From the IMG/VR virus record IMGVR_UViG_3300039106_000621, positions 1 to 33,125 of that record: DNA of 33,125 nt. One strand, 5' to 3'. Position 1 is the first letter of the stretch. Each line of letters opens with the position of its first letter. The DNA is from a virus (taxonomy: Duplodnaviria > Caudoviricetes). The position numbers and the translations under genes were made by a program. Below the pieces are notes generated by a model. It had not been told where the DNA came from and did no database searches. It saw only the letters and a program-made list of their open reading frames with translations. Positions 3,608 to 32,867 of this stretch are shown piece by piece.

Positions 3608-5848
3608 TTATTTTAATGCACGAAGTAAGTCAGATTGCACAATATCTTTATCTTTCAATACGTTAATGATTCGCTCGTCAATGCAGCCTTTGCAGATTAA
3701 GTGGATAATCCTTACCGCCATAGTCTGTCCTTGCCGGTACAATCGAGCATTAAACTGCTGGTAATACTCCAAACTCCAGCTCAGTGAAAACCACACAATC
3801 ATGCTACCACCGTGTTGGATATTTAACCCATGTCCAGCGGAATTATGCGATATGAATACCTCCCCATTATTATTTCGTACAAGAAATCTATTTCTTGATC
3901 CGCAATCAACTAAATCAAATACTTCCGAGAACGTCGGTTTTTCGGATACTTTGAATTTAAATAATTGATCACAGCATCCTCCGGAGTCATTCCTAAATTT
4001 AAACGAGGGGTTATCGCTCCTCTGCTTATGTTCACAACCCTGCAAAATTCTGACAAGTGCATTTGTTTGCCTTTGTAAACTAAAACCCTGTTGTTTATTT
4101 TGTTTGCTTGTTGTTCCATATTTGTTGCCCATCGGCAATTGTCTTTGGAATAACCTTTTGAATTGTCTATCCGATCTAAAGTTAGATTGTCTGAATATGT
4201 TTCTTTCATATCTGAATAAAAATTCTTGAAGTCTAACCATTCTTTCGCAACGCCCTTGCCTTTTCCACCATATAGAATGTAGCTTCGATCGTATTCTTTC
4301 GTTGCTCGACTCATCATCCCCTTCCAAATACTCCAAATTCTTGTATTTGTCATTAAATGAAAGTTTTCTTTTACGCATTTTGAACAATGTTTTCTGTTCT
4401 CTTTGTTCGCTCTTAAAACATTTTGTTTTAATAGTGTGTGTATTTCCCCGCAATGGCAACATTGAGCTAAGGTAAGCGTCAGTTCCGCTGTAGCTGTAAT
4501 TCGCTTTTCTTCTAGTATGGATATTATTTTGTACATTTTTTGCTTCCACCCATTTGTCATCGATAAGTATTTTATGATTCTCGGTCATGGTTATCCCCAT
4601 CACATCAATCACTTCTTTTACACCAGAAAAATGACACCCGCTATGGCTTACAAATTCAATACCATCAAAAACACGTTCGTCTTTTTTCACATCGACAATC
4701 TTAGTCCATCCTCTATGTTCAGTCAACACTTCAGTCGATGGATGTAAACAAGCCGGATGAGCAAATAGAAGGGGTATTTCGCCATTGTTCCATTCGTCAA
4801 TAGTGTTTTGATGCTTATCGAGAACTCGTGCATTAGGAAAGCGTTTAAGCAATCGCTCAATATCGCTTTTGAAGTTATAGGCAACAAGGATATTCTCCCC
4901 ATCGTTTTGCTCAATAATGTCTGCAAGCGCATCGAGTTTTGCATCGTGAACGACTTCATAGTTTTTAAATTCATCGACGTACACAGCACCAGCGCAATAC
5001 TGCAATAACTTATTGGCAAGTGTCGCTGCGCTCAATGCTTCAACTTCAGACTCCTCAAACTTCAAATAAAGTTTTTCTTCAAGAAGTTTATAATTGTTCA
5101 TTACTGTAGGTGCTAATTCAATTTCTTCATATAATTCAATGTAGTCTGGCATTTCAAGGTAATCGCTGGTTTCCATTGATATGGTAAATGGCGCTATCAA
5201 TTCTTCGATTTTCTTTTGTGAGTCTTTGCGAGGGGTATATTTGTAACCGCTATAATCCTGTTCAAAGAATCGGCTTTTATACATAGTCATAGTTCGCCCA
5301 AGTGCTTTACCGTTATCTACTAAATAGCATTGCGACCACAAGTCAAGTAAGCCATTGGGTGAAGGTGTGCCTGTAAGCAGGGTAATGTAGTGAACATAGG
5401 GAAGTGCTTTGCGTAGCGCTTTGACACGTTTGCTTTTATCGCTTTTAAAGCTGCTCGATTCATCAATGACCACCATTTGAAATGGAAATTTATCTCTGTA
5501 ATGCTTAACCAGCCAAACCACGTTTTCCCGATTGATGACATAAACGTCCGCATCATGATGCAAGGCAGCTAGGCGCTTTTGCTCTGTGCCTGTACATATT
5601 TTGAATTTTAAATCTTTGAGATGTTCCCATTCCTTTGCTTCTTGCGCCCAGACGCTATTAGCTACTCTCAGTGGCGCGATAACAAGCGCTTTGGTAATTA
5701 CACAAGCGTCAATTAAATCGTGGATTGTAGTGAGCGTAGAAGCTGTTTTCCCCATCCCCATTTTAAGCGCACAAAGTGTTCGCTCTTGTTCAATTTGAAA
5801 CGCGGAGGTTCTGACTTGGTAATGACGGAGTTCTACTCTAGTGCGCAT
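3608..5848 (-). CDS. SNF2-family helicase precursor containing an intein (746 aa; 443 aa after splicing)
   Basis: Walker A MGMGKT, Walker B VVIDESS, motif III LTGTP, motif V HPA|SAGHGLN split by the intein, motif VI QFNARLYRQGQ. Confidence 0.95.
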   Translation of the reverse strand: MRTRVELRHYQVRTSAFQIEQERTLCALKMGMGKTASTLTTIHDLIDACVITKALVIAPLRVANSVWAQEAKEWEHLKDLKFKICTGTEQKRLAALHHDADVYVINRENVVWLVKHYRDKFPFQMVVIDESSSFKSDKSKRVKALRKALPYVHYITLLTGTPSPNGLLDLWSQCYLVDNGKALGRTMTMYKSRFFEQDYSGYKYTPRKDSQKKIEELIAPFTISMETSDYLEMPDYIELYEEIELAPTVMNNYKLLEEKLYLKFEESEVEALSAATLANKLLQYCAGAVYVDEFKNYEVVHDAKLDALADIIEQNDGENILVAYNFKSDIERLLKRFPNARVLDKHQNTIDEWNNGEIPLLFAHPACLHPSTEVLTEHRGWTKIVDVKKDERVFDGIEFVSHSGCHFSGVKEVIDVMGITMTENHKILIDDKWVEAKNVQNNIHTRRKANYSYSGTDAYLSSMLPLRGNTHTIKTKCFKSEQREQKTLFKMRKRKLSFNDKYKNLEYLEGDDESSNERIRSKLHSIWWKRQGRCERMVRLQEFLFRYERNIFRQSNFRSDRQFKRLFQRQLPMGNKYGTTSKQNKQQGFSLQRQTNALVRILQGCEHKQRSDNPSFKFRNDSGGCCDQLFKFKVSEKPTFSEVFDLVDCGSRNRFLVRNNNGEVFISHNSAGHGLNIQHGGSMIVWFSLSWSLEYYQQFNARLYRQGQTMAVRIIHLICKGCIDERIINVLKDKDIVQSDLLRALK
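3842..4750 (-). mobile_element. Intein (303 aa, precursor residues 367-669) in helicase motif V
   Basis: Block A CLHPSTEVLT, block B TMTENHKI (TxxH), block F VFDLVD, block G FISHN followed by Ser+1; removal restores HPASAGHGLNIQ. Confidence 0.93.
3910..4536 (-). CDS. HNH-type homing endonuclease nested in the +1 frame inside the intein (208 aa)
   Basis: N-terminal CCHC..CSKC; RIWSIWKGMMSR..YGGKG..W..F..FY.DM; LTLDRIDNSKGYSKDNCRWATNMEQQANK nuclease motif; C-terminal HTH-like segment; ATG 4536 preceded by GGTGG; TAG at 3910-3912. Confidence 0.88.
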   Translation of the reverse strand: MYKIISILEEKRITATAELTLTLAQCCHCGEIHTLLKQNVLRANKENRKHCSKCVKENFHLMTNTRIWSIWKGMMSRATKEYDRSYILYGGKGKGVAKEWLDFKNFYSDMKETYSDNLTLDRIDNSKGYSKDNCRWATNMEQQANKINNRVLVYKGKQMHLSEFCRVVNISRGAITPRLNLGMTPEDAVINYLNSKYPKNRRSRKYLI

Positions 5849-11432: not shown

Positions 11433-11444
11433 CGAGGATTGTTT

Positions 11445-13955
11445 ATGGTGGAGTCTACTAAAACGTACCGCATCAGTCGCGGGGATAAGAACAGCGCTGT
11501 CTGTCGCAATGTGGAGGTGACATGGGAGCGAATTTGTACGGTACTCGGTAAACACAAAGTTGCAAAGACCAAAGAGCAGGAAGGATGGTTTTGTGGCGGT
11601 GGGTTCAGTAATGGGTATCGCAACACGGAGAACCTGCTCGGACGTTCACTTTTAACCATTGACGTTGATGAATGCGCAATGACTAAAGGAGAGATTGAGT
11701 TTGAGCTGGAGATGACCGGCTTTGCGCTCGTTGCGTACTCAACATGGCGTAGTACAGATGACGCTAATCGCTTTCGTATAGTGTTACCACTGTCACGGGA
11801 GGTCAGCGCGGAGGAGTATGTTACCGTGATGCACTGGTTCGCGTCGGAGTTTAGCAGTTTTATTATTGATGACAGTGCTTTTAAGCCTGCTCAGTTTATG
11901 TATATGCCAAGTGTTAGCGCTGGTTCGATTGAGTCGTCTTTTGTGATGGTGATGGAAGGCAGTGAGGTTGATGTGGATGTAGCGCTTGCCTTTCCTGTTG
12001 AAAAGCGGGTGCAGGGAACTGTCAAGGATTACTTGACAACTGAATTTGATGTAGATGATACGGATGATGACGCGGATGATATGCAGGGACTCTCGCTTGC
12101 ACTCGCGCATGAGCCGATTGATGTCAGTGATGCACTGGTTGAAGCCAATCTCGATGCACTGGTTGAAGCGGCAGGCGATTACTCGACGTGGATTACCGTC
12201 GGGCAAGCATTGCATCATCAATATCGCGGATCGGATGATGGGAAGTTGCTCTGGCTACATTGGTCAGCTAACTCGGATAAGTTCAACGCGGCAGATATTG
12301 ACCGCAAATGGCAATCATTCAAGACGGAAAAGAAAGTGCGCCCGTTGACGTTTGCCACAGTGATTAAGATGGTGAAGGACAGCGGAGTAAGTGTTGGGGA
12401 GATTGTCGAACGGCAGGTTAAAGAATTGCTTATTACCGGATCAGAAGGTCTGTCGGTTGATAATGACAGGGCGTATGAGGATGTGCGCAATAAGTTGCGT
12501 AAATTACCACTCAGCGCTGTGACATTAACCAAGCGTCAGCAAATCGCACAGGACATTTATGATCGATGGGGTAAAGGTGAGGGGATGACGAAGTCGGCTA
12601 TTGTTCGTGAGCTTTGCCCACCGAAGAAGGGCGGACTGATTGTTGAGGAGATGCCGTCGTGGTTGAACAACTGGGTTTATGTGCAACGTCCGATGGAGTT
12701 CCATAACTTGAAGCACGGCTACTCTATCAAGCGCGAAGCCTTCAACGCGGAGTTTGATCGCATGGATGAGTGTGTCGCTGCGGAAAGGTCAGCATCGTCG
12801 ATGGCGCTCGTTGATTGGAAACTCGACACGGTAATCGATACCATGTACTGGGCGAGTAAGAACGATGGGATTTTCGTTAATGATAACGATGGACTGCGAT
12901 ATGTGAACTCGTATAAGAAGCGCGGAGTTTTACCATGTGAAGTGATGGACGACGATGGGTTGCGTGTTGTGGATATGATGCTCAAGCACTTGGAATTCAC
13001 GCTGGTTGAACCTAAAGAAAGGGCGATACTGCTGGACTGGATGTGCCATGTTGTGCAAAACATTGGCAGTAAAGTGAATTGGGCGGTACTTTTGCAGGGT
13101 ACGCAAGGTGGCGGTAAAACCTACTTTACTCGCATTTTGCAGGGGATACTTGGGTCGAATGCCACGCAGCTCGATCCGAAGCAATTTACGAAGGGGACGT
13201 TTTCGGGATGGGCGTATGGTTCGGTATTGAATATCGTTGAGGAGATACGGCTATCGGGCGATAACAGATGGTCGATTATCGATACAATGAAGCCATACAT
13301 TACAAACGAAACGATACAGATTGAAGAAAAATTTTCTAACTCTAGGACTGTTCCGAATTTCACGTCGTATTTTCTTTTAACCAATTATCAAGATGCACTA
13401 CCAATTACCAATGGTGATAGACGTTATTGCGTTTTGTATAGTCGCTGTCAGTCGGAGGAACATTTGTTTGCACTGCTCGGTGGTGAGCAGGAAACCAACC
13501 GGTATTTTGAGAAACTGTTTTCAGAAACAGACCGTCGCATGGATGCACTTTGCCACTACTTTATGAATCGGGTGATAAGTGGGGATTTTTCAGCGAAAGG
13601 TCGAGCGCCTAAAACCTTGTCGCGTGAAAAGATGATTGGGTATTCTGTGTCACATGAATTTGAAGAAGTGAAAGATTTGATTGCGCATTACCACTGTGAG
13701 GTCATTAACGAAAACATAGTCGATATCACACTACTTGGTAAACTTAATTTTGAAGAGTTTGAGCCTTCAGTTTTAAAACTTCCAAAAACGTCGGCATTGA
13801 CTCGGATACTTTTACAGATTGGCTACGAGAAAGTTCACAAAAGAATCGATGTACCGACAAGCGATGGAGGGCGAAAAAAACACACGATTTGGCGACGTAG
13901 CACTCTGGACGAGAATGAAGTTATCAAGAAAGTCCGCGAGCATTACGGAATTTAA
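11445..13955 (+). CDS. Primase-helicase (AEP-like primase, PriCT-2, C-terminal SF3/DUF5906-like NTPase)
   Basis: LLTIDVDE, YSTWRS, RFRIVLPL; DYSTWITVGQALH..W..WS..S.KF (PriCT-2); GTQGGGKT Walker A, IVEEI, LTNY..A, DRRY. Confidence 0.88.
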   Translation: MVESTKTYRISRGDKNSAVCRNVEVTWERICTVLGKHKVAKTKEQEGWFCGGGFSNGYRNTENLLGRSLLTIDVDECAMTKGEIEFELEMTGFALVAYSTWRSTDDANRFRIVLPLSREVSAEEYVTVMHWFASEFSSFIIDDSAFKPAQFMYMPSVSAGSIESSFVMVMEGSEVDVDVALAFPVEKRVQGTVKDYLTTEFDVDDTDDDADDMQGLSLALAHEPIDVSDALVEANLDALVEAAGDYSTWITVGQALHHQYRGSDDGKLLWLHWSANSDKFNAADIDRKWQSFKTEKKVRPLTFATVIKMVKDSGVSVGEIVERQVKELLITGSEGLSVDNDRAYEDVRNKLRKLPLSAVTLTKRQQIAQDIYDRWGKGEGMTKSAIVRELCPPKKGGLIVEEMPSWLNNWVYVQRPMEFHNLKHGYSIKREAFNAEFDRMDECVAAERSASSMALVDWKLDTVIDTMYWASKNDGIFVNDNDGLRYVNSYKKRGVLPCEVMDDDGLRVVDMMLKHLEFTLVEPKERAILLDWMCHVVQNIGSKVNWAVLLQGTQGGGKTYFTRILQGILGSNATQLDPKQFTKGTFSGWAYGSVLNIVEEIRLSGDNRWSIIDTMKPYITNETIQIEEKFSNSRTVPNFTSYFLLTNYQDALPITNGDRRYCVLYSRCQSEEHLFALLGGEQETNRYFEKLFSETDRRMDALCHYFMNRVISGDFSAKGRAPKTLSREKMIGYSVSHEFEEVKDLIAHYHCEVINENIVDITLLGKLNFEEFEPSVLKLPKTSALTRILLQIGYEKVHKRIDVPTSDGGRKKHTIWRRSTLDENEVIKKVREHYGI

Positions 13956-20711: not shown

Positions 20712-23700
20712 ATGGCTATATTTACTTTTGCAGCACCAGACGGAAAAGAATACGATATTGAAGCGCCAGAAGGTGCAACCCAAGATCAAGCATTGGATTA
20801 CTTAGTATCGAATTGGGATACGCTCAAAGATATGCCGTCACCTAGTGATGCTGCGAAAGTAAATGAACCTGTAGTACAAGAAACCAACCAACCTGTAGCA
20901 GAACAGCCAGAAGGCGACAAATCTATGGTAGGTAAAGCCTTAGATTGGATGATGAAACCCGAACCTCAAAAACCAGTAGACACTTCAATTGATAATCAAG
21001 AATTATCAACCACTGAAGAAGCCTATCAACGTGCCAAGAAAATTGCGGCTGAACTTTATAATTCCACTATTGAACCTTATCGAAAATCCGTAGAGGATTT
21101 ATCTTTATCAATGGGTAAAGGCTTAATAAGTGTTCCCGAATTTATAACAGGTGTTGCTGATATAGCCAGTGGGGGTAAAGTAGGTAAAGCCTTAGAAGAC
21201 AGTGGCGTTAACTTCCAAGAAGCAAAAGACTGGTTAACTTCTCGCCAAACTTTAGAAGAACAAGCGGCTGCAAAAGAACGAGAAAGCGAACCTACATTTG
21301 GTGGAACAGTTAAATCAATGGCAATGCACCCATTGTCAACTATTAACGCGGCTGTTGAATCAATTCCAGCGTCATACGTTGGTGGGCGAATCGGTCAAGC
21401 AGTTGGTGGGATAAAAGCATTAGGTAAAGCCAGCGGAATGCTTGGAGCAGGTGCAGGTGAATTTATTGTCGGATCGGGACAAGCAGAAGAAGGTATTCGT
21501 CAACAAACACCAGACGGGCTAACCACACCAGCACAATCAGCCTCAGCGGTAGGCGCAGGTGCAGCAGACGCATTCTTAGCAGGTATTGGTAGCGTAGCCG
21601 CTAAGAAATTAGGTATATCAGATATTGATACCTTATCAGCAGGAACAGGTGAAGCATCGAAAACTATTAGCAATCTGTATAAACAAGTATTGTTAACAAT
21701 GGGTGTTGAAGGGGGTGAGGAAATATCTCAATCGGCTGCTGAAAAGGTTATTGAAAACTATGCGTTAGATAAACCAAGTCTATTTGAAGGTGTACCAAAC
21801 GCTGCGGCAATAGGCTTAGTTACAGGTGCGACTATGGGCGGAGGTCACGCTTTAATAAGCGAACTGGAAAAAGATAAACCTCAACCCGAAGGCACACCAA
21901 TTGCAGAATCAATGTTGCGCGGTGGATTACCAACAAGTGAACCTACTCAACCTCAAACAGAACCGCCTGATAATGAAGCCCTAAGAGCTTATAGGGAAGT
22001 TTTCAGTGATGCGAATTTAAACCCTACCCCACCTGCTCAAGCGGTAGATACCACAGCGCCTATTGTTGACAATGAAACTATTGCCAAAGATGTAATTAAT
22101 TCAAATACACTTGATGACGCACTCCAAACATTCAACAATACCGTAGAAGCAAACACCTATGGGCATGAAGTGAATATGGAATATGCAAATAAAATTGCAG
22201 ACAGATTCACTAGTAAAAAAGAAATTGAAATTCAAGATAAGGATTATCAAGATTCAGTTCAATTAGAAAATCAGCTTTCAACCGTTAGGGATGAGCTTGC
22301 TTACAAGAAATTCCAAACAGCATTTGAAGAATCAAATCAACAGGCATCAAAAGAAGAATTTGATGCGTTAGTTGAACAAGAAATTCAAGATAAAAATCAA
22401 CAACTTAAATCTGTTTTAGACCAACAATCAACGCAAAGAGCGCAAAGATTTGAAGCCAGTGTCCCATCAACTAATACCGTTATTGAAAATGAACAATGGG
22501 CAAGAACTCGTAACAATCGTAATGCCATTATTCAAATGGTATTCGATAGAAACCTGCCTGCTGAAAATATTTTCCCTGCCATTAAAGCAGAATTAAAACG
22601 TCAAGGCTTTAACGATACGCAGTTATCGCAAGATGATATTGAAGCCTATACGTTTTTAAAAGAATACCCACAAGCTAAGGTCGAACCAGCTCCACTGCAA
22701 GTGATCCCAACATCAGTAAATGAAATGGATGTTGAATCGCTAATCAAGGAAAAACCTCAAGCAATTCAAACTGAGCAATTATCACCTGCGTTATCCAAAG
22801 TAAATGAATGGGTAAACAATGGAGCGACTTATAAAAATGGAATGCTCATTGATTCTAAAGGTAAAAAGTTTGTACTTAACAAAGCTCAACGTGACTACTA
22901 TTTAATGTCGCGCTCTAGTCCATTGATGCAAACACCTGTTGCTATGGGCGAAGGTACGGTTGAAACACGTCGAGGTCAAGAGCAGATTAGTGGTGTGGAA
23001 GAACCTAATGCGCCAACAGCAGAAATACCTGTAGCAGAAACACTAATAACAGAAGTTCAAACGCAAGAACAACTTCAAAAACTAATGAATAGTTTTCAAG
23101 AAGGGGATGTGATTGTTACAGATACAGGTGATAGATTTGTAATTGAAGGTGTTATAAAAAGAAAAAATGGAGAGGTTGCGGCAGTTATAATCCCCCCATC
23201 TGAAGAAGAAGGAAGTAAACGATTTACCCTAGATATTGATGGTGTTAATGCGTTTATTAATCCTCAAGGGTATTATGACCAAAAGACAAATGAACGAAAA
23301 CTTAGCGGATTTGGAAAAGTTGAAAGAGCAAAACCAACAGCAGAAATGCCAACAGCAGAAATGCCAACAGCAGAAACGCCAACAGCAGAAATACCTGTAG
23401 CAGAAACTCCAACAGCAGAAAATAAAAAACTGTATGAGTTAACTCGTGAAGAATATGCAGTAAGATTCCCAACAGCTAAGGAATCAGCCTATGACGATAC
23501 TATTCGCAATGCTGTAACTCTAGGTGACTTAACACAGGAACAAGCTGATAAAGTTTTAATCAGAACATGGTCTGGGCAAAAAGAATTTTGGGCAAAAACT
23601 AGAAGTGAACTTGAGCAAGAAAAGAAAGATAGCACTCGTAGGTTAGTTAAAGAAAAAGCGCAATCTAAAAAGAACCCTACTTACAATGTAAAATGGGCGC

Positions 23701-26700
23701 AAAAGTCTGAAGATAATTCTCGCAAAATAGCTATTGAGCAAAACAAAAAACAGTATGATGAATTACTAGCAGTTCATAAAGAACGTGTTCAAGAAGCACT
23801 TGATGAAGGTAAACCTGTACCCAAAGAAGTGTTAGCTGATTATCCCGATTTAAAACCAAGCGTTGAAGTTACAAATCAAACACCAGTAGCAGAAACGCCA
23901 ATAGAGACCAAACAACAAATTAATCCAAAAATTGCAGGTAATTTGAAAAGTGGTGACATTGTAGTTGATGTAAACGGAAAAGAGTATTTGGCGCAAAGCG
24001 CTCGACAAGATTACTTAGAAGCGTTTCCAATTGTAAATGGCAAAGCGGATGTTTCAAAAGATACATTAGTAACATTTCATTTAAGAGATGCAACTAAAGA
24101 TGCGTTTAAAGAACGTAACAACACGCCTATTTTTACAACAGGTAAAAATTTATATTCTGAAACACCAACAACAGAAACGCAAGCAGCAGAAACACCAGTA
24201 GCAGAAACACCAGTAGTAGAAACACCAGTAGCAGAACCCAAAGGAACAATCAACAACCCTATTCTTAGAAAGAACGGTAAGCCATTTACTAGTCAGCAAG
24301 GAGCGCAAACGCACATTCGCACCAATCCAGAATTATCTAAGGATACTCACACTTGGGTAAAACTTGGCGATGAGAAATACGGTATTGTCACTGAAGACCA
24401 AGTGGTTAGAAAACCAACAAAACCTGCTGCCAATAACCTACGGGCACTAACTGGTTTAGAACCTATTGAAACTGCTATTGGTAAACTTGGCGGTATCAAT
24501 CGTGAGATGGCGAATAAAGCAGGTTTTTCTGATTTTAAAGGTTGGTACTTTACTAAAACAAGTTCCGAAGGTTTTGATGGAATGGCGTTACGATTAGCTG
24601 ATAGGGGTTATGACGTTGATGGGGAAAACGATTTAATTGCTAAATTAGATCAATCATTAAATGCAAGGCTATTTGGTAGGGGGCAACAAGTCTATACGTC
24701 CCAAGGACTTGATAACGATATTGCCAAAATGTTAGCCGATAGAGAGGATGATTTAGAACAGCAACAACAAGATGAACTTTTAAATACCTATACAAATGAA
24801 GAAGTTAACGCAATTTTAGATGCGCAGACGCAAGCTGAAAAAGATAAACTCATTGCAGATATTAAAGCAGAAAAGAAACGTAAAGCTGATTTAGAAGTCG
24901 ATACAGTAGTTGATGAAATGCTCGGTAAAGGCATGACAACTTCTGGTGATTTGTTTGCACCAGAACGTAAGGGCAAAGCTACCGTTGGGCGTGAAGTGAC
25001 AATTGAAGGTGAGCAACTTGCTAACTCACCACTTGAGCTTAAAAAACTTTATCCTAATCATTGGTTCTATGGGAATAAAGGCGCTCAAAGTAAATTTGAT
25101 GAAACTGAAATTGATTATGAAACCCAATACCCTAATCTTGAATCGGTTTCATTAATCAATACAGATAGCAATATCGGTGGATTCTACGATCAAGTTGAGC
25201 AGGCTATTTATCAAACAAGTCAATCTGATCGCACCACAATACACGAACTCGGTCACGCTATTCATCACCAACTACTGAATTACCGCAAATTAACTGAGGA
25301 TGAACGCGCTACACTTAAAGAATTAATTCTAGGTGATGCGGAAGCTAATCATCCTTATTTAGCAAGTGATAAAGAACTTGTGGCTGAATTCAATCTGTAT
25401 GCACACGTTTTTCCAGTCAAAGCCAAAGCCTATGCACCAGAGCTTTATAAAGAGCTTGTAGGCGGCAGAAAAGATGTAAGCATTAAGTTAGGTAGCCAAG
25501 ATAATAAAGCACTCACAGCAGCGCTTAAACAGGCGAATGTGACTATTGAGAAAGGGTATGGGGATGAAGAACAAATCAAACCTAAACTTACTCAAAAAGA
25601 ATTAGATGATTATGATAAATATAAAGTTAATAGATATAATGAAGATAAAAATAATGTTATTAATTTTTTAGATGAAATTGGTGCATGGACATCTAATCTT
25701 ATGAAAGAATCTAAAGATTTTTTAGTTGTTCCAATAGTTTCAATTAATAAAAATATTAGATTTGCATTAGTTTCAAAAGCCTATCCTGCTGTAAAACATG
25801 GATCGATTATATTTTTAAATGACGATGGTCAAATAGCAAAGGCTAAAAGTTATAGTCGCATTGCTAAGAATTTATTTGGTAAAGAAAAAGGTAGAGAAAT
25901 AATATTTGATGATAATTTAAATTCAGAGGTTTTATCTGAATATAAAAATGATTTGGCATTTAATGCAGGACTTAGTTTTCAGTCAATTGTTGATAAAGTA
26001 GATAGTTTAAAATCATTATCTCACCTTACTACTTCGGAAGATCGTGCTTCTCAGTTAAAAGATATTTTAGGGGATGTTTGGACTAAAGCTGTTGATAAAT
26101 CTAATAAATCAAATATCAAATTCAGCAAAGCCAAATCGCAGCAACGCCTTGCACCTAATGGTAAACCATCAAACTTAAATGCGGTTCAATACGAGCAAGT
26201 TAGAACACCAGAATTCAAAGAGTGGTTTGGTGATTGGGAAAATGATCCAGAAAATGCTTCAAAAGTTGTTGATGAAAATGGCGAGCCGTTAGTGGTTTAT
26301 CATGGTACAAAACAAATTGATATTGAATCATTTAAAAATGTTAGAAATCCTAAAGATTGGGGAGATGTATTTAAGCAATACAAAGAAGAAGGCGGTATCC
26401 CCTATTCACTTTATCGATATGGTTTCTTTTTCTCACCTGTAAAAGAAATTGCTAATAATTACACTGGTGATAATACGGGTACGCTTTACCCTGTATTTGT
26501 ATCTTCCAACAATCCTATATTTGTAGATTATTCTAAAGCAAAAAATAAATTACCACCTTACGCACCATTAGGTGAAAAAAATACAGATGGTTTGATATAT
26601 CATAATAATGATTTTGATAAGGTATTAGAAATAGCTGTTATTGATCCTAATCAAGTTAAATCTGCTATAGGTAACACAGGTGCGTTTAGCAAGGAAACAA

Positions 26701-29700
26701 ATGATATTCGATTCAGCAAAACAGCTAAAAAGGTTTTAGATGAAAACCCATTGGCTATTATTCACAATCTCAGCTTAAGTAATTTGACCCATGCTGACAA
26801 AATGGGCGGTATCGCTGTACCTAGTGTGGCAGTTATTAATCAAAAGCATCCATTGAGTGGCTTTGGTGAAATTACTTTAATTGGGGATACCTCACAATTT
26901 GCGCCAGAAGTAAATGCTAAAAATAAATACTTTAATGCAGATGTGTATTCTCCACGTTATCCCCAAGTAACTTATGTTGTTGATTCCAAAACACTTAATA
27001 GTGCAAATGAATCGTTATCAGACGATACTAAAGAATTGGCAAAAGCAATTGGCTATAGAGGTTTAATTAACGCATCGTCTATTGAAGATAGAGGAGTGTT
27101 AAAAGGATTGCAAGATAGCGTGACTTTAAAATATGAGTTTTTAAAGTCAATCGGCAAAGCGCCTAAAATGCAATATAGACCCAACAAAACTCCACCTGCT
27201 AGTATGAAGAAATTTATTTCTTCAAAAGTTGATGCAATGGAATTGGAAAACGATACTGCGTTTGTGCAAGCAGTCGTTGATATTTCAAATGAATCTATTC
27301 GAGTTAGAAATGAGCGTTTAAATCAAAACCGCAAATACATTGCAGTCGATAGTCAAGAAGCGTTAAACCTAGCATCTGCTTATCAATATAATATTAAAGA
27401 ATTTCGAGATCAAAAAGGAGCGCAAAAATCAATTGATGAATATGCGACTTCTAAATTGATTCGTGAAAAAACCAATCAAGCTCAATACGAAAAATGGCTA
27501 GTTGAAAATTACAGTAATCTTGTATCTGACGAACGTATTTTTAATGGTTATACCAGTTCGGGTAAGCGCGTTTATTTGCCGCACAATCTCGACACAGTTG
27601 TGAAGCTGATGACTAAAACCATAAAGGGCGGTGAAAACGTTAGTTATGGGATAGGTACAATTCGCGCATATACCGCAAAACAATTTAAAACTGTTAAGCA
27701 AATACAAGATGCTCGCGGAGATATTGTTAGTGATGAAAAATTAGCGCAGTTAAAAGAAGAATTAGAATCTGAATTTAATTCTATTTCAGATGAATTAAGA
27801 CCGTATTCTGATTATTCTGATCCTAGTGCAACGGATGCATTAAGTGACCTTGTGTCAAAAGGCTTACGGGCATTTAAAGAATCTTATCAAAATGTACCTG
27901 AAGAAACGATGACTAAAGTGTATAGTTTCTTAGATAAACTCAAAAATATGCCTGCGCATTATTTTGAAGGGAAAATAGGACGTGCTGTTGATATTGGCGA
28001 ATTCTCCGGTGCGTTAGTTCCAAAAGGTAAAGAGTATGATGAAGCGGTTAAAATCCTAAATGCTAATGGTATTACTAAAATTAAGCGTTATACCGAAGGC
28101 GATGCACAAAGCCGCAGTGATGCGCTTTTAAACTTTAGTGATTTACTGTTTGGAAAAAATCGACAACCTGCTACCAATACTCACACCGAGCAATCTTTAA
28201 AAGAAGGTTTGACCAAAGCCGGTGACGATGCTTACGGTAAAGGCTGGACTGATAAGTTACTTAGCACAGGGATGTTTGAAATTATCTCTGACGAACAAGC
28301 ACAAGCGATTATTGAAGAATCTACCGGAACTAAATTTGCATTAGTTGGAGATCGTTCCGCAGCAAACACCCAAATTGATACAACAATGGGGGCGTATGCC
28401 GCTGTTGCTAGAAACTTATTTGCAAAAATACCAAACCTTAAAAACATATTGGATTATGGTGCGGGGAAAGGACGTGGTACGGCAAGTGTTTTTAGAGCGT
28501 TGACTAATAAGGGATTGGATGTAAATGTAAAATCTTACGAGCCCTTCCCAGAAAATTGGGCAAAATCATTAACAGACGAACCCGATTTTACAAATGCCGA
28601 TAATATTAAAGACGGTAGTCAAGATGCGGTAGTAAATCTAAACGTATTAAATGTTGTCCCAAGAGCAATTAGAGATGATATTGTAAAAAATATTGGGCGA
28701 ATTTTAAAAGATGGAGGTGTTGGGGTAATTAGTAGTCGTCGTTGGAAAGGTGATGTCGATACCATTAAACCTGCAAATTCAAAAGCGGGTGAAGAACCCA
28801 ATTCTTTTTATGTTACTCGTAAATTAAAAGGCGTTGAACAAACTAATTATCAAAAAGGCATTGAGCCAGACGAGTTAGTTGCTTATGTTCAAGAATTACT
28901 TCCAGATTTTGATGTTAGAAAAATTAACGGCTATGGTGCAAGCGCGGTAATTATTCAAAAATCTGGCGGCACGCCTATTTTAGATTCAATTTTAAAACCT
29001 GTTAAAAAAGAAAAAGTTGAAATTGGTTCTGCTGAAACAGAAGCGCTTAGAAAAGAAGCAAAAGAGTTAGGCGCAGGAGAAAGATATTCTGAATTTGGTG
29101 TCGGTAAAAAAATGGGGGATGAGGTGTATCTTCATAGAGATTATGAAGGGGTTCTCCCACAAGGCGATTTAGCGGATGCTAAAGAACGTATTGATGATTT
29201 TGAATATAACCTTATTCGTTATAATACTAAAACTGGTGCAATTGGATTTTTTAATTCGCCCGATTTTGATACTTCGCCCGAACCCATTAACGGTAATTTA
29301 ATTGTAGTTGAACCAGACGGGACAATACGGACGGTAGATTTAAATAAAAACCCAGATAAACAGGCTATCTATCACCATAAATGGGAATGGGTAAAGGACG
29401 ATTATGATGGTTTTGATGTTAAACAAAGTATTGAGCGATCTATTGGATGGCAAAAAGTAGTTAACCGCGAAGGTATTGATAGAAAACGTATTGGCTTTCA
29501 AGGTGTTTGGCAAAATGAAGTATTGCAACCTTTTGATATTAAGTACAGCAAAAACGGTGATATTGAAGCATTCTATAATCCTGCTAACGGTAAAACGTAT
29601 TTTGTCGCAGAGAACATTGATAAAGCAACTGATTTACATTATTTAATGATGCACGAAGTTAGTGTGCATATGCTTAAAATGGGAGCTAATGAAGCTGAAT

Positions 29701-32700
29701 TTGAAAATTTCTTAAAAGAAACTGACAACTTAGTAAAAGTTAAAAACCCAGCGGCTGTTAAGGGTAGACAAGATGCGTTAGATGCCGATACTCCAGAAGA
29801 AGATTTGCGCGAAGAAACACTTGCCTATTTAATTAAATATGCGCCCAAACTCAAAATTGTTCAAAGATTCAAAGCATGGCTCAAAAATGCACTTCGCAAT
29901 ATGAGTAAACTATTCCCTGCTTCACAAAAGCTAGGATTCATTCAATGGGCAAATAACCTAAGTGACCAAGATTTACTTTACATTGCTGAAGCGACATTGC
30001 GTAAAGCACCAGAGATGTTGGTTGCGCAACGACAAGATACTGGGAATGTAAAATTCAGCCTTGCTCAAAACGAAGAAAACCTTTTCAATTTACCTGCTGA
30101 AACTAAATTCCAATTTATGCGCAAATGGATTCAAGATGATTTATTGAGAATCCGCGTTGTAATGGATAAGATTAGAGAACAAGGTGGGAAAGTCGATGAA
30201 AGCAATGACGTGGTTCTTGCTATGGAAGCTGCGGGTAATATCGCAGCAAACCAATTGGAAAATCTTAAAGAGCGTTTCATTCAACCGCTAATTGATAGAA
30301 TGGCGAAAATGAATGTAAACAAAGATGAAATTGGTTTACTTCTTTATGCTAAAGGCGCTCCTAGTCGTAATGCTTACATCCAATCTATCAATCCTACATT
30401 TCGTAAATTAGGCGAAGGCGGTAGCGGTATGACTGACGCAGAGTCAGCGGCTATTATTGAAAGATATAAAGAAACAATGGGTGATAAATACCCAGAGTTT
30501 GAAAAGTTAGTTGATGATTGGCAAAACATTCAAAACATAGTTAAACGAATCTTAGTGCAATCGGGTGACATTTCACCAGAGCAAGCAGAGGCATGGGATA
30601 ATGCGTCAGATTATCATGTTCCAATGAAGGGTTTTGAAGAAGTTGACGAAATAACCGGTAAAGCAACTAAAAAATCTAGTCGTGGGAATATCGGTCAAGG
30701 TTTCTCTATATCGGGTAAATTTGATAGACGCGCATTAGGTCGGCAATCTCGTGCTAGTCAAATTGTCGAAAACATTGTGATGAATTTAGAAAGAGCGGTC
30801 ATTCGTTCTTCTAAAATGTACACACAATCAGTGCTTTACAAGTTAATTGAAGATAATCCCGATGCTAAGTTATGGGAGAATGAAGTTACTCCAATGCAAC
30901 CGGTAATGGGTAAATCCAAAGCGCAATACGTCATGTACTTCAACGGCAGTGAGATTGGTCAACGCGATACACTAAAAGATGCCCGTCGCTACGTTGAAGC
31001 AGAAACAGCGCGAACAGGTCAATCTAAACGTGAATATGAAATTATTAAAGTAGGCGGTGAACCTCAAGTTACTTTGATTAAAAAACCTTATGACCAAAAT
31101 GAAGAAATATCATATTGGCGTAATGGTAAACAAGTTCGTATTACAGTTAACGATTCGGAATTTGTTCAAGCGTTTAATAGATTAGGGGATGAGAACATTT
31201 ACTCCATGTTTAAGGTCATGGGCGCTTTTAATAGATTCTTGCGCCATGCTTATACAATTTTAAACCCTGTATTTATTATTGCCAATGGGGTGATGGTTGA
31301 TCCGGCAGTTGCTTTATATACCAACACAGCTAGAAAGGGATTTAAATACGCATCCACTGTTTTAGCTAAAACGCCTATAGCTTCTTTGCAACTTGCTAAA
31401 TACATGGCAAAAGGAACATCGGGCAATGCGCAGTGGGATAACACAATCAAATCTTACCTTGATAACGGTGGTAAATCTGGCGCAGCCTTTATTTCAAGCA
31501 TTGAGCAAAAAGCTGACGAACTTAACTTAGCAGTTTTAAAATCAAAAATGACGGATACTAAATTTTATGAATATCCACTTGATAAATTAAAACTGATGGT
31601 TGTAGATAATAAACTTGCTAACTTAATGAAATATTTAGGGGAAGTTGGTGAAACTGCAACTCGACTGTCTACATTTAAAGTTGCTGTTGATAACGGTATG
31701 ACTCCGCAGGAAGCCGCTAAAATTGCACGAAACGTAACTATTAATTTTAATCGACGAGGTATCGTTGGTCGTGAACTTGGCGCTATGTATTTGTTTTTAA
31801 ACGCATCTATCCAAGGTACTGAAAATTTAATTGATGCTACTATTCACGGAGAGCATAAAGCGCAAGCTACCGCGATACTTTCAACTTACGTTGCATTAGG
31901 TTATTTAATAGCACTACTTGGTGGAGATGATGGGGATGATGATTTGATTCCCGAAGAAGAAAAAAATAGATATGTCAGCATTGTATTGGATAAAGAAACC
32001 GGACTTCGCGTCAATTGGAAACTTGCCTACGGTTTATCGTTCTTTAAGGATGTTGGTACAGCAATCCATAGAATACAAGCAGGGGGTGATGTGGAGAAAA
32101 TTACCAATAAATTGATGTCATCTTTCTTTGGTAACTTTGCTTATGTCAATCCAATGGTGTCGGGAGAATGGGATTCTAAAGATTTAATAGCAGGTATGAT
32201 TCCTACCTTTGGGCGAATTCCTTATTCGGTTATTAATAATAGAAACCAATGGGGTAAACCTATTTATCCAGAAGATGTTTACAACACCACTGTTCCAGAT
32301 AGTGAAAAAGAATGGTCTACAACAAGAGGTACGATGTATTCCGATTTTGCTAAATGGATGAACAAAGTCACAGGCGGAACAAAAGTAGAATCTGGCTTGG
32401 TAGATATGTCTCCCGAAACAATGAAGTATTTGACAAATGCGCTTACCGGATCGGCAGGAACGCAAGTTTATAAATTTGTAAACTCTATTTACACTTCTTC
32501 AATGAATGCTGAAGAAATGGGATTACATAATTTACCTGTCGTATCGGGGTTTGTTAAAGAAAACACTATTGACTCTTATCGTAATGTTTATAACTCACAA
32601 CGCAAAGAAGCAAAAGATATTTACGATAAGTTTAAAAAGTATGAAAAATTAGGCGATGATGAAGCTACTGATAAATTTACCAGTAAACATCAACCTACGC

Positions 32701-32867
32701 TCGACTTCTACGATGAAACTAAATCAATTATCAAAGAGGTAAAAGATTTGCGAGATAAGCAAGATGAAGCGCGAGTTGAAGGCGATAAAGCATTAGTCAA
32801 AGAGCTTGAAGCCGAAGAAAAACAACTATTGATTGAATACAGTTACCAGTATAATCAACGTCAGTAG
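20712..32867 (+). CDS. Giant polyvalent internal virion protein (4051 aa): zincin HExxH motifs, ART-like domain, SAM methyltransferase, C-terminal LPD38-like domain
   Basis: PDGKEYDIEAPEGAT N-terminus; HELGH (25242); VVDENGEPLVVYHGT (~26270); LDYGAGKG and NLNVLNVV (~28450-28660); HEVSVH (29652); E.ATRL..F, NFNRRG, YLFLNASIQG, N...WG.PIY in the C-terminal region. Confidence 0.85.
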   Translation: MAIFTFAAPDGKEYDIEAPEGATQDQALDYLVSNWDTLKDMPSPSDAAKVNEPVVQETNQPVAEQPEGDKSMVGKALDWMMKPEPQKPVDTSIDNQELSTTEEAYQRAKKIAAELYNSTIEPYRKSVEDLSLSMGKGLISVPEFITGVADIASGGKVGKALEDSGVNFQEAKDWLTSRQTLEEQAAAKERESEPTFGGTVKSMAMHPLSTINAAVESIPASYVGGRIGQAVGGIKALGKASGMLGAGAGEFIVGSGQAEEGIRQQTPDGLTTPAQSASAVGAGAADAFLAGIGSVAAKKLGISDIDTLSAGTGEASKTISNLYKQVLLTMGVEGGEEISQSAAEKVIENYALDKPSLFEGVPNAAAIGLVTGATMGGGHALISELEKDKPQPEGTPIAESMLRGGLPTSEPTQPQTEPPDNEALRAYREVFSDANLNPTPPAQAVDTTAPIVDNETIAKDVINSNTLDDALQTFNNTVEANTYGHEVNMEYANKIADRFTSKKEIEIQDKDYQDSVQLENQLSTVRDELAYKKFQTAFEESNQQASKEEFDALVEQEIQDKNQQLKSVLDQQSTQRAQRFEASVPSTNTVIENEQWARTRNNRNAIIQMVFDRNLPAENIFPAIKAELKRQGFNDTQLSQDDIEAYTFLKEYPQAKVEPAPLQVIPTSVNEMDVESLIKEKPQAIQTEQLSPALSKVNEWVNNGATYKNGMLIDSKGKKFVLNKAQRDYYLMSRSSPLMQTPVAMGEGTVETRRGQEQISGVEEPNAPTAEIPVAETLITEVQTQEQLQKLMNSFQEGDVIVTDTGDRFVIEGVIKRKNGEVAAVIIPPSEEEGSKRFTLDIDGVNAFINPQGYYDQKTNERKLSGFGKVERAKPTAEMPTAEMPTAETPTAEIPVAETPTAENKKLYELTREEYAVRFPTAKESAYDDTIRNAVTLGDLTQEQADKVLIRTWSGQKEFWAKTRSELEQEKKDSTRRLVKEKAQSKKNPTYNVKWAQKSEDNSRKIAIEQNKKQYDELLAVHKERVQEALDEGKPVPKEVLADYPDLKPSVEVTNQTPVAETPIETKQQINPKIAGNLKSGDIVVDVNGKEYLAQSARQDYLEAFPIVNGKADVSKDTLVTFHLRDATKDAFKERNNTPIFTTGKNLYSETPTTETQAAETPVAETPVVETPVAEPKGTINNPILRKNGKPFTSQQGAQTHIRTNPELSKDTHTWVKLGDEKYGIVTEDQVVRKPTKPAANNLRALTGLEPIETAIGKLGGINREMANKAGFSDFKGWYFTKTSSEGFDGMALRLADRGYDVDGENDLIAKLDQSLNARLFGRGQQVYTSQGLDNDIAKMLADREDDLEQQQQDELLNTYTNEEVNAILDAQTQAEKDKLIADIKAEKKRKADLEVDTVVDEMLGKGMTTSGDLFAPERKGKATVGREVTIEGEQLANSPLELKKLYPNHWFYGNKGAQSKFDETEIDYETQYPNLESVSLINTDSNIGGFYDQVEQAIYQTSQSDRTTIHELGHAIHHQLLNYRKLTEDERATLKELILGDAEANHPYLASDKELVAEFNLYAHVFPVKAKAYAPELYKELVGGRKDVSIKLGSQDNKALTAALKQANVTIEKGYGDEEQIKPKLTQKELDDYDKYKVNRYNEDKNNVINFLDEIGAWTSNLMKESKDFLVVPIVSINKNIRFALVSKAYPAVKHGSIIFLNDDGQIAKAKSYSRIAKNLFGKEKGREIIFDDNLNSEVLSEYKNDLAFNAGLSFQSIVDKVDSLKSLSHLTTSEDRASQLKDILGDVWTKAVDKSNKSNIKFSKAKSQQRLAPNGKPSNLNAVQYEQVRTPEFKEWFGDWENDPENASKVVDENGEPLVVYHGTKQIDIESFKNVRNPKDWGDVFKQYKEEGGIPYSLYRYGFFFSPVKEIANNYTGDNTGTLYPVFVSSNNPIFVDYSKAKNKLPPYAPLGEKNTDGLIYHNNDFDKVLEIAVIDPNQVKSAIGNTGAFSKETNDIRFSKTAKKVLDENPLAIIHNLSLSNLTHADKMGGIAVPSVAVINQKHPLSGFGEITLIGDTSQFAPEVNAKNKYFNADVYSPRYPQVTYVVDSKTLNSANESLSDDTKELAKAIGYRGLINASSIEDRGVLKGLQDSVTLKYEFLKSIGKAPKMQYRPNKTPPASMKKFISSKVDAMELENDTAFVQAVVDISNESIRVRNERLNQNRKYIAVDSQEALNLASAYQYNIKEFRDQKGAQKSIDEYATSKLIREKTNQAQYEKWLVENYSNLVSDERIFNGYTSSGKRVYLPHNLDTVVKLMTKTIKGGENVSYGIGTIRAYTAKQFKTVKQIQDARGDIVSDEKLAQLKEELESEFNSISDELRPYSDYSDPSATDALSDLVSKGLRAFKESYQNVPEETMTKVYSFLDKLKNMPAHYFEGKIGRAVDIGEFSGALVPKGKEYDEAVKILNANGITKIKRYTEGDAQSRSDALLNFSDLLFGKNRQPATNTHTEQSLKEGLTKAGDDAYGKGWTDKLLSTGMFEIISDEQAQAIIEESTGTKFALVGDRSAANTQIDTTMGAYAAVARNLFAKIPNLKNILDYGAGKGRGTASVFRALTNKGLDVNVKSYEPFPENWAKSLTDEPDFTNADNIKDGSQDAVVNLNVLNVVPRAIRDDIVKNIGRILKDGGVGVISSRRWKGDVDTIKPANSKAGEEPNSFYVTRKLKGVEQTNYQKGIEPDELVAYVQELLPDFDVRKINGYGASAVIIQKSGGTPILDSILKPVKKEKVEIGSAETEALRKEAKELGAGERYSEFGVGKKMGDEVYLHRDYEGVLPQGDLADAKERIDDFEYNLIRYNTKTGAIGFFNSPDFDTSPEPINGNLIVVEPDGTIRTVDLNKNPDKQAIYHHKWEWVKDDYDGFDVKQSIERSIGWQKVVNREGIDRKRIGFQGVWQNEVLQPFDIKYSKNGDIEAFYNPANGKTYFVAENIDKATDLHYLMMHEVSVHMLKMGANEAEFENFLKETDNLVKVKNPAAVKGRQDALDADTPEEDLREETLAYLIKYAPKLKIVQRFKAWLKNALRNMSKLFPASQKLGFIQWANNLSDQDLLYIAEATLRKAPEMLVAQRQDTGNVKFSLAQNEENLFNLPAETKFQFMRKWIQDDLLRIRVVMDKIREQGGKVDESNDVVLAMEAAGNIAANQLENLKERFIQPLIDRMAKMNVNKDEIGLLLYAKGAPSRNAYIQSINPTFRKLGEGGSGMTDAESAAIIERYKETMGDKYPEFEKLVDDWQNIQNIVKRILVQSGDISPEQAEAWDNASDYHVPMKGFEEVDEITGKATKKSSRGNIGQGFSISGKFDRRALGRQSRASQIVENIVMNLERAVIRSSKMYTQSVLYKLIEDNPDAKLWENEVTPMQPVMGKSKAQYVMYFNGSEIGQRDTLKDARRYVEAETARTGQSKREYEIIKVGGEPQVTLIKKPYDQNEEISYWRNGKQVRITVNDSEFVQAFNRLGDENIYSMFKVMGAFNRFLRHAYTILNPVFIIANGVMVDPAVALYTNTARKGFKYASTVLAKTPIASLQLAKYMAKGTSGNAQWDNTIKSYLDNGGKSGAAFISSIEQKADELNLAVLKSKMTDTKFYEYPLDKLKLMVVDNKLANLMKYLGEVGETATRLSTFKVAVDNGMTPQEAAKIARNVTINFNRRGIVGRELGAMYLFLNASIQGTENLIDATIHGEHKAQATAILSTYVALGYLIALLGGDDGDDDLIPEEEKNRYVSIVLDKETGLRVNWKLAYGLSFFKDVGTAIHRIQAGGDVEKITNKLMSSFFGNFAYVNPMVSGEWDSKDLIAGMIPTFGRIPYSVINNRNQWGKPIYPEDVYNTTVPDSEKEWSTTRGTMYSDFAKWMNKVTGGTKVESGLVDMSPETMKYLTNALTGSAGTQVYKFVNSIYTSSMNAEEMGLHNLPVVSGFVKENTIDSYRNVYNSQRKEAKDIYDKFKKYEKLGDDEATDKFTSKHQPTLDFYDETKSIIKEVKDLRDKQDEARVEGDKALVKELEAEEKQLLIEYSYQYNQRQ
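23334..23423 (+). repeat. In-frame 15-bp tandem repeat x6 (PTAEM/PTAET/PVAET)
   Basis: CCAACAGCAGAAATG and variants. Confidence 0.9.
24159..24236 (+). repeat. In-frame 15-bp tandem repeat x5 (ETPVA)
   Basis: GAAACACCAGTAGCA and variants. Confidence 0.9.

Follow-up and report, generated by a model that had tools for sequence, protein, structure and literature searches.

A putative mobile intein in a phage SNF2 helicase gene, with a PacI-like endonuclease gene nested in a second reading frame

How can one stretch of an intein serve two reading frames, and does the second of them make the intein mobile? The question is raised by IMG/VR record IMGVR_UViG_3300039106_000621, a 33-kb linear virus record (58% complete) of 33,125 nucleotides, all of which is referred to here as the window. 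In it, the gene of an SNF2-family helicase carries a 303-amino-acid (aa) insert, predicted to be an intein, and a second gene lies inside the insert in the +1 frame of the same strand. The original prediction recognised this layout, which is confirmed here and is common to 55 full-length relatives. We consider, with a probability of roughly 0.8, that the element is a dual-coded mobile intein, in which the helicase frame is spliced and a separately started, PacI-like nuclease drives homing.

The intein frame and the nested nuclease

The insertion is precise and in-frame, between the helicase residues HPA and SAG, which we take to be motif V. The residues of a class-1 intein are present (C1; T56-H59, the block B TxxH; D279 of block F; H302-N303; S+1), and C1, T56, H59, D279, H302 and N303 are invariant across 37 alignment rows. 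In a structure model, the confidence score pLDDT (predicted local distance difference test) is ~90 across residues 1-90, residues 1 to 98 align with the Npu DnaE N-intein, and the HINT fold of a class-1 intein is found. The 303-aa intein is thus predicted to splice out, restoring a helicase of 443 aa from its two exteins. The part of the intein frame that overlaps the nuclease is modelled with low confidence, and residues ~101-269 are probably a tolerated, disordered linker, where the only clear constraint is that no stop arises and the frame is kept.

The nested open reading frame (ORF) matches PHROG HNH families (E 1e-40), and it had been read as a phage-type HNH nuclease. This identity needs correction. 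The pair of residues at the usual site of the catalytic His is ER in 47 and DR in 8 of the 55 full-length relatives, with His in none, while R122, Y129 and N133 are invariant. A canonical HNH nuclease of the I-HmuI or EndoVII type is ruled out, since Arg replaces the post-Asp catalytic His in all 55. The best structural match of residues 58-147 is PacI, a member of His-Me finger group 20, in which, according to the available parts of two reports (PMC5714182, PMC3384342), the catalytic His is absent and a Tyr stands in the loop. By its residues, with His absent and the loop of the beta-beta-alpha core holding a conserved Tyr, the nested protein is a PacI-like His-Me finger nuclease of this group, and it may well use Tyr in catalysis. 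It differs from PacI, described in the same parts of these reports as a 142-aa restriction enzyme, in being intein-borne and in having an additional N-terminal hairpin and C-terminal helical domain. Runs X2 and X7 also contain further contigs that agree with the nuclease core (window 4076-4182) over short stretches before diverging, which suggests that related nuclease genes occur in the same samples.

Conservation was examined in 126 fetched loci, of which 89, together with the window, have an open intein at the helicase site. These reduce to 70 unique sequences and to 59 representatives at <85% identity. None of the 70 unique alleles matches the nuclease profile in frame 0; a canonical intein with an in-frame endonuclease is therefore ruled out, and the in-frame fusion that might have undone the prediction is not found among these homologues. 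The full nuclease is encoded in 55 representatives. The other four have in-frame internal deletions that leave inteins of 147-197 aa, in which the two splicing halves survive along with remnants of the nuclease.

The nested gene appears to have its own start, as originally proposed. A +1-frame ATG or GTG stands at intein codon 72 in 59 of 59 representatives, and its T, which falls on a wobble position of the intein frame, does not vary under six different amino acids of that frame. Upstream of it, pairing with the anti-Shine-Dalgarno sequence exceeds that of synonymous re-codings in 46 of the 59 (p 3e-6), so the Shine-Dalgarno (SD)-like site is itself selected. The invariant Trp67 of the intein supplies part of this site for free. 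At the other end, the nuclease stop lies 23-24 codons ahead of the intein end in most relatives.

The +1-frame nuclease is under purifying selection. Over 18 disjoint pairs, the ratio of nonsynonymous to synonymous substitution (dN/dS) stands at 0.195 for the nuclease frame, compared with 1.32 for the intein frame that overlaps it and 0.16 where the splicing parts are single-coded. The high intein-frame value is a by-product of selection on the nuclease frame, as was concluded for a dnaX intein by Phillips et al. (bioRxiv 10.64898/2026.09.14.751524). The intein frame avoids stops, as had been suggested: across the 55 genes, 2,488 at-risk junctions give none, against 755 expected. In the window alone, a synonymous T could give rise to an intein-frame stop at 51 junctions; none does so, and not one of 20,000 re-codings reached zero stops.

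The original prediction regarded the overlapped intein frame as filler. This holds for the linker, but over the first ~26 codons of the overlap selection acts on both frames. Nuclease wobble positions fixed beyond the codon-usage prediction (z>4) number 8 of 27 in codons 2-28 versus 1 of 170 later. They set the intein residues R80, A83, Y85, Y87, G89, Y93, L94 and M97, which are confidently folded in the model, fall within the span aligned with the N-intein and persist in each of the four deletion alleles. Thus, the SD-like site, start, first ~26 codons and stop of the nuclease all lie on functional intein sequence (Table 1).

Table 1. Features of the helicase gene and its insert (window coordinates).
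Feature	Position	Strand	Remark
SNF2-family phage helicase precursor ORF, 746 aa	3608..5848	-	
N-extein of helicase, 366 aa	4751-5848	-	
C-extein of helicase, 77 aa	3611-3841	-	
Class-1 intein (predicted), 303 aa, C1...H302-N303	3842..4750	-	
N-terminal half of splicing (HINT) domain, residues 1-98	4457..4750	-	pLDDT and alignment
Block B, T56-E-N-H59	4585-4574	-	
C-terminal splicing segment, blocks F and G, residues 273-303	3842..3934	-	
Nested gene in +1 frame, 208 aa; endonuclease of the PacI-like beta-beta-alpha-metal ('HNH') kind, presumed to act in homing	3910..4536	-	
SD-like GGTGG within intein codons W67-V68-E69	4546..4550	-	9 nt 5' of nested ATG
Nuclease stop TAG	3910-3912	-	inside intein block F
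Overlap of nuclease codons 1-26 with selected intein residues	4460..4536	-	bifunctional
Nuclease zinc finger, CxxC...CxxC (C26, C29, C51, C54)	4375..4461	-	invariant in 55/55 full-length relatives
Nuclease core, D121-R122...Y129...N133-C-x-W...Q142-Q-x-N145	4102..4176	-	Arg at usual His position, Tyr invariant
Small helical C-terminal domain of nuclease, ~residues 151-197	3946..4086	-	presumed DNA-binding
Downstream flank unlike close empty alleles, ~18 nt	3824..3841	-	likely co-conversion tract
Upstream flank difference, 3-4 nt	4751-4754	-	Ala vs Gln at -1; likely co-conversion

Filled and empty alleles

Thirty close helicase alleles were collected, of which 24 extend to the insertion site; the intein is present in 8 of these and the site is empty in 16. 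Four empty alleles share 98% protein identity with the N-extein of the window, several intein-bearing alleles are nearer to empty alleles than to one another, and filled and empty alleles coexist in two of three DNA runs. Contigs from an RNA run extend over the downstream flank alone. Among intein-bearing alleles, third positions differ by 9.8% in the exteins versus 1.4% in the intein. The intein has thus spread patchily and recently among near-identical helicases. This distribution is consistent with homing, with a clear contrast in divergence and a tree that lacks resolution.

Residue -1 is Ala (HPA) in nine of nine filled alleles (eight loci and the window) and Gln (HPQ before S) in all 16 close empty alleles. 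Downstream, filled alleles and the commonest empty type differ over a few to ~18 bases. The intein-less form of the window's own sequence had been proposed as the cleavage substrate; given these differences at -1 and in the flanks, it is not the natural target. The allele pattern fits recent homing with short co-conversion. Beyond the close set, the intein also sits after HPQ, HPM, HPL, HAA and HPR.

These observations suggest the following cycle. Ribosomes in the helicase frame would read through the intein, and the predicted splicing would leave the 443-aa helicase, while translation of the PacI-like nuclease likely begins at a separate start within the intein. The nuclease probably cuts intein-less helicase alleles near the insertion site, and repair would copy the element in, along with short co-converted flanks. 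The element may have originated when a free-standing nuclease gene invaded a mini-intein, and it decays by in-frame internal deletions towards a mini-intein. Such an invasion formed part of the original prediction; it is plausible and matches the published model.

Alternative explanations

A different origin would be an in-frame fusion of intein and nuclease that two compensating indels moved out of frame. In-frame HNH inteins do exist, the nuclease occupies the usual place of an intein endonuclease, and at its 5' end it overlaps a folded part of the intein. However, the frame-0 nuclease missing from the helicase-site alleles is also missing from all 31 related inteins at other sites. A set of 27 related inteins (PolA-like genes and a second helicase site, judged by their flanks) was typed by frame. 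They carry the nuclease in +1 (22) or +2 (2), one has a remnant, and two, minis of 109 and 116 aa, have none; their nuclease start positions also differ from that of the helicase-site form. Furthermore, homologous nuclease genes occur outside the helicase site in 913 phage records, those listed being annotated as HNH or hypothetical. We regard this origin as unlikely. Three loci (L110, L117 and L120, from 2001) hold related inteins with a +1 nuclease, which apparently follow N-K-L-L-Q-like motifs at a second SNF2 helicase site. Two helicase alleles are broken, one (L052, 2001-2924) by an Arg as the first intein residue and a premature stop, the other (L048, 1273-2194) by an intein-frame frameshift; either may be a pseudogene or an assembly error.

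It is also conceivable, and we think quite improbable, that the nuclease owes its retention to a role other than homing into this site, such as marker exclusion of rival phages, degradation of host DNA or recombination, with the intein as a shelter and the Gln(-1) empty alleles being immune. The strict division of close alleles into HPQ-empty and HPA-filled types, which share samples, could be read in this way, and PacI itself is a restriction enzyme. Against it stand the far lower divergence of the intein than of the exteins, the variable length of the flank tracts, the deletion alleles, which match the decay expected of a homing cycle, and the occurrence of the intein after other residues, HPQ included.

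Programmed +1 ribosomal frameshifting from the helicase frame, giving a fusion of the nuclease to the N-terminal half of the intein, is very improbable. For some codons 5' of the ATG the +1 frame lacks stops (in many alleles from codon ~55 on), and an A-run immediately precedes the ATG in the window. Many relatives lack this run, however, RNA structure is not notable (z -0.26), and both the single, fixed start position with its constrained T and the constant spacing of the enriched SD-like site argue for independent initiation. That the insert stays unspliced as a tolerated loop, a proposal made for the ShiLan methylase insertion in the available part of a report (PMC11855218), would agree with its sub-threshold scores in intein hidden Markov models, but we see hardly any chance of it. 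An assembly artefact with two compensating errors, or a chance ORF, can be dismissed: a contig from another study is identical over the whole intein, three DNA runs contain no indel there, 55 diverse full-length relatives share the layout, and shuffles also speak against it.

Related systems, genome setting and significance

The element has the testable features of a non-canonical intein whose homing endonuclease is out of frame (Gosselin 2025; Phillips 2026), and out-of-frame intein endonucleases, HNH included, are already in print. In the available part of a 2015 report (PMC4422536), a brucellaphage terminase large subunit gene contains a putative intein-encoded HNH gene out of frame, and one change is missense in one frame and silent in the other; the host there is a terminase rather than a helicase, and that part describes no test of selection or homing. 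For actinobacteriophage inteins, the accessible text of Gosselin, Arsenault and Gogarten (bioRxiv 10.1101/2025.01.02.630785) reports out-of-frame and antisense endonucleases, proposes invasion by free-standing endonucleases and notes signs of continued transfer. Similar to the helicase intein, these include same-strand, out-of-frame endonucleases with an in-frame part of no recognisable structure.

The cyanobacterial dnaX intein of Phillips et al. has its endonuclease in a +2 ORF and shares with the present case an own start with a putative SD site, a low nuclease-frame and high intein-frame dN/dS, a disordered in-frame part and the coexistence of empty, mini and full alleles. It differs in having a LAGLIDADG nuclease and a cellular host gene. 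The ShiLan domain, as far as the accessible text goes, shares a nested out-of-frame nuclease (HNH, in a phage methylase) and a stop-free host frame, but lacks a splicing domain and an SD site.

Related elements are found in PolA genes. The splicing domain of the APSE-1 DNA polymerase intein (NC_000935) is homologous to that of the helicase intein (25% over 303 aa), and a homologous D-R...Y...N nuclease lies in +1 in APSE-1 and Caulobacter phage RW, and in +2 in Sodalis phage SO-1 and Salmonella phage LP31, at other start offsets. The nested gene is annotated in APSE-1 (P46 'HNH endonuclease' inside P45) and SO-1 (gp38/gp39), but not in the RW and LP31 records. The SO-1 record (L137, NC_013600.1, gp38/gp39) speaks of a type I self-splicing intron, while the sequence looks like an intein of 299 aa that has the nuclease in +2. 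Our literature search returned no account of this helicase site, of a PacI-like active site in an intein nuclease or of two-frame selection on a splicing domain.

A broader proposal, to which we would give even odds, is that these inteins of SNF2 helicase and PolA genes form a widespread, undescribed phage clade that homes by a His-less, PacI-type tyrosine nuclease. The nuclease would be a separate gene woven into the intein, with its ribosome-binding site, start and first ~26 codons doubling as folded splicing-domain residues and its stop in block F. The parts would be locked together, and the nuclease lost only through internal in-frame deletion.

The window record turns up in freshwater and lake metagenomes. 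At the locus lies a replication module of a DUF2800 exonuclease, an Enc34-type single-stranded DNA-binding protein, a DNA polymerase (PHROG 1252), a VRR-NUC protein and the SNF2 helicase; a primase/helicase gene (11439-13955, +) is on the strand opposite to the rest. Elsewhere, the window encodes a 203-aa stand-alone TSCPD or ribonucleotide-reductase-like C-terminal protein (940-1551, -) and a 4,051-aa ORF (20712-32867, +) whose PHROG matches are of unknown function only (14770, 616, 30335), apart from a weak methyltransferase match. Among the collected helicases, P0056, P0093 and P0108 (1,064-1,093 aa) also bear a LAGLIDADG domain (PF14528), probably of a second, canonical intein.

Often, a phage intein of ~300 aa 'with no endonuclease' is in fact a full mobile element; gene callers and intein annotation follow a single frame and so overlook its nuclease, as in the RW and LP31 records. 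In this family, nature offers a clean example of how overlapping genes evolve under constraints that can be separated: both frames are selected over 26 codons and only stop avoidance acts over ~170. Empty, full and decaying alleles within one freshwater phage population make homing directly testable. If active, the nested enzymes would be PacI-type homing nucleases, in a nuclease family for which an E value of 1e-10 or better gives about 93,000 representatives and which has hardly any biochemistry.
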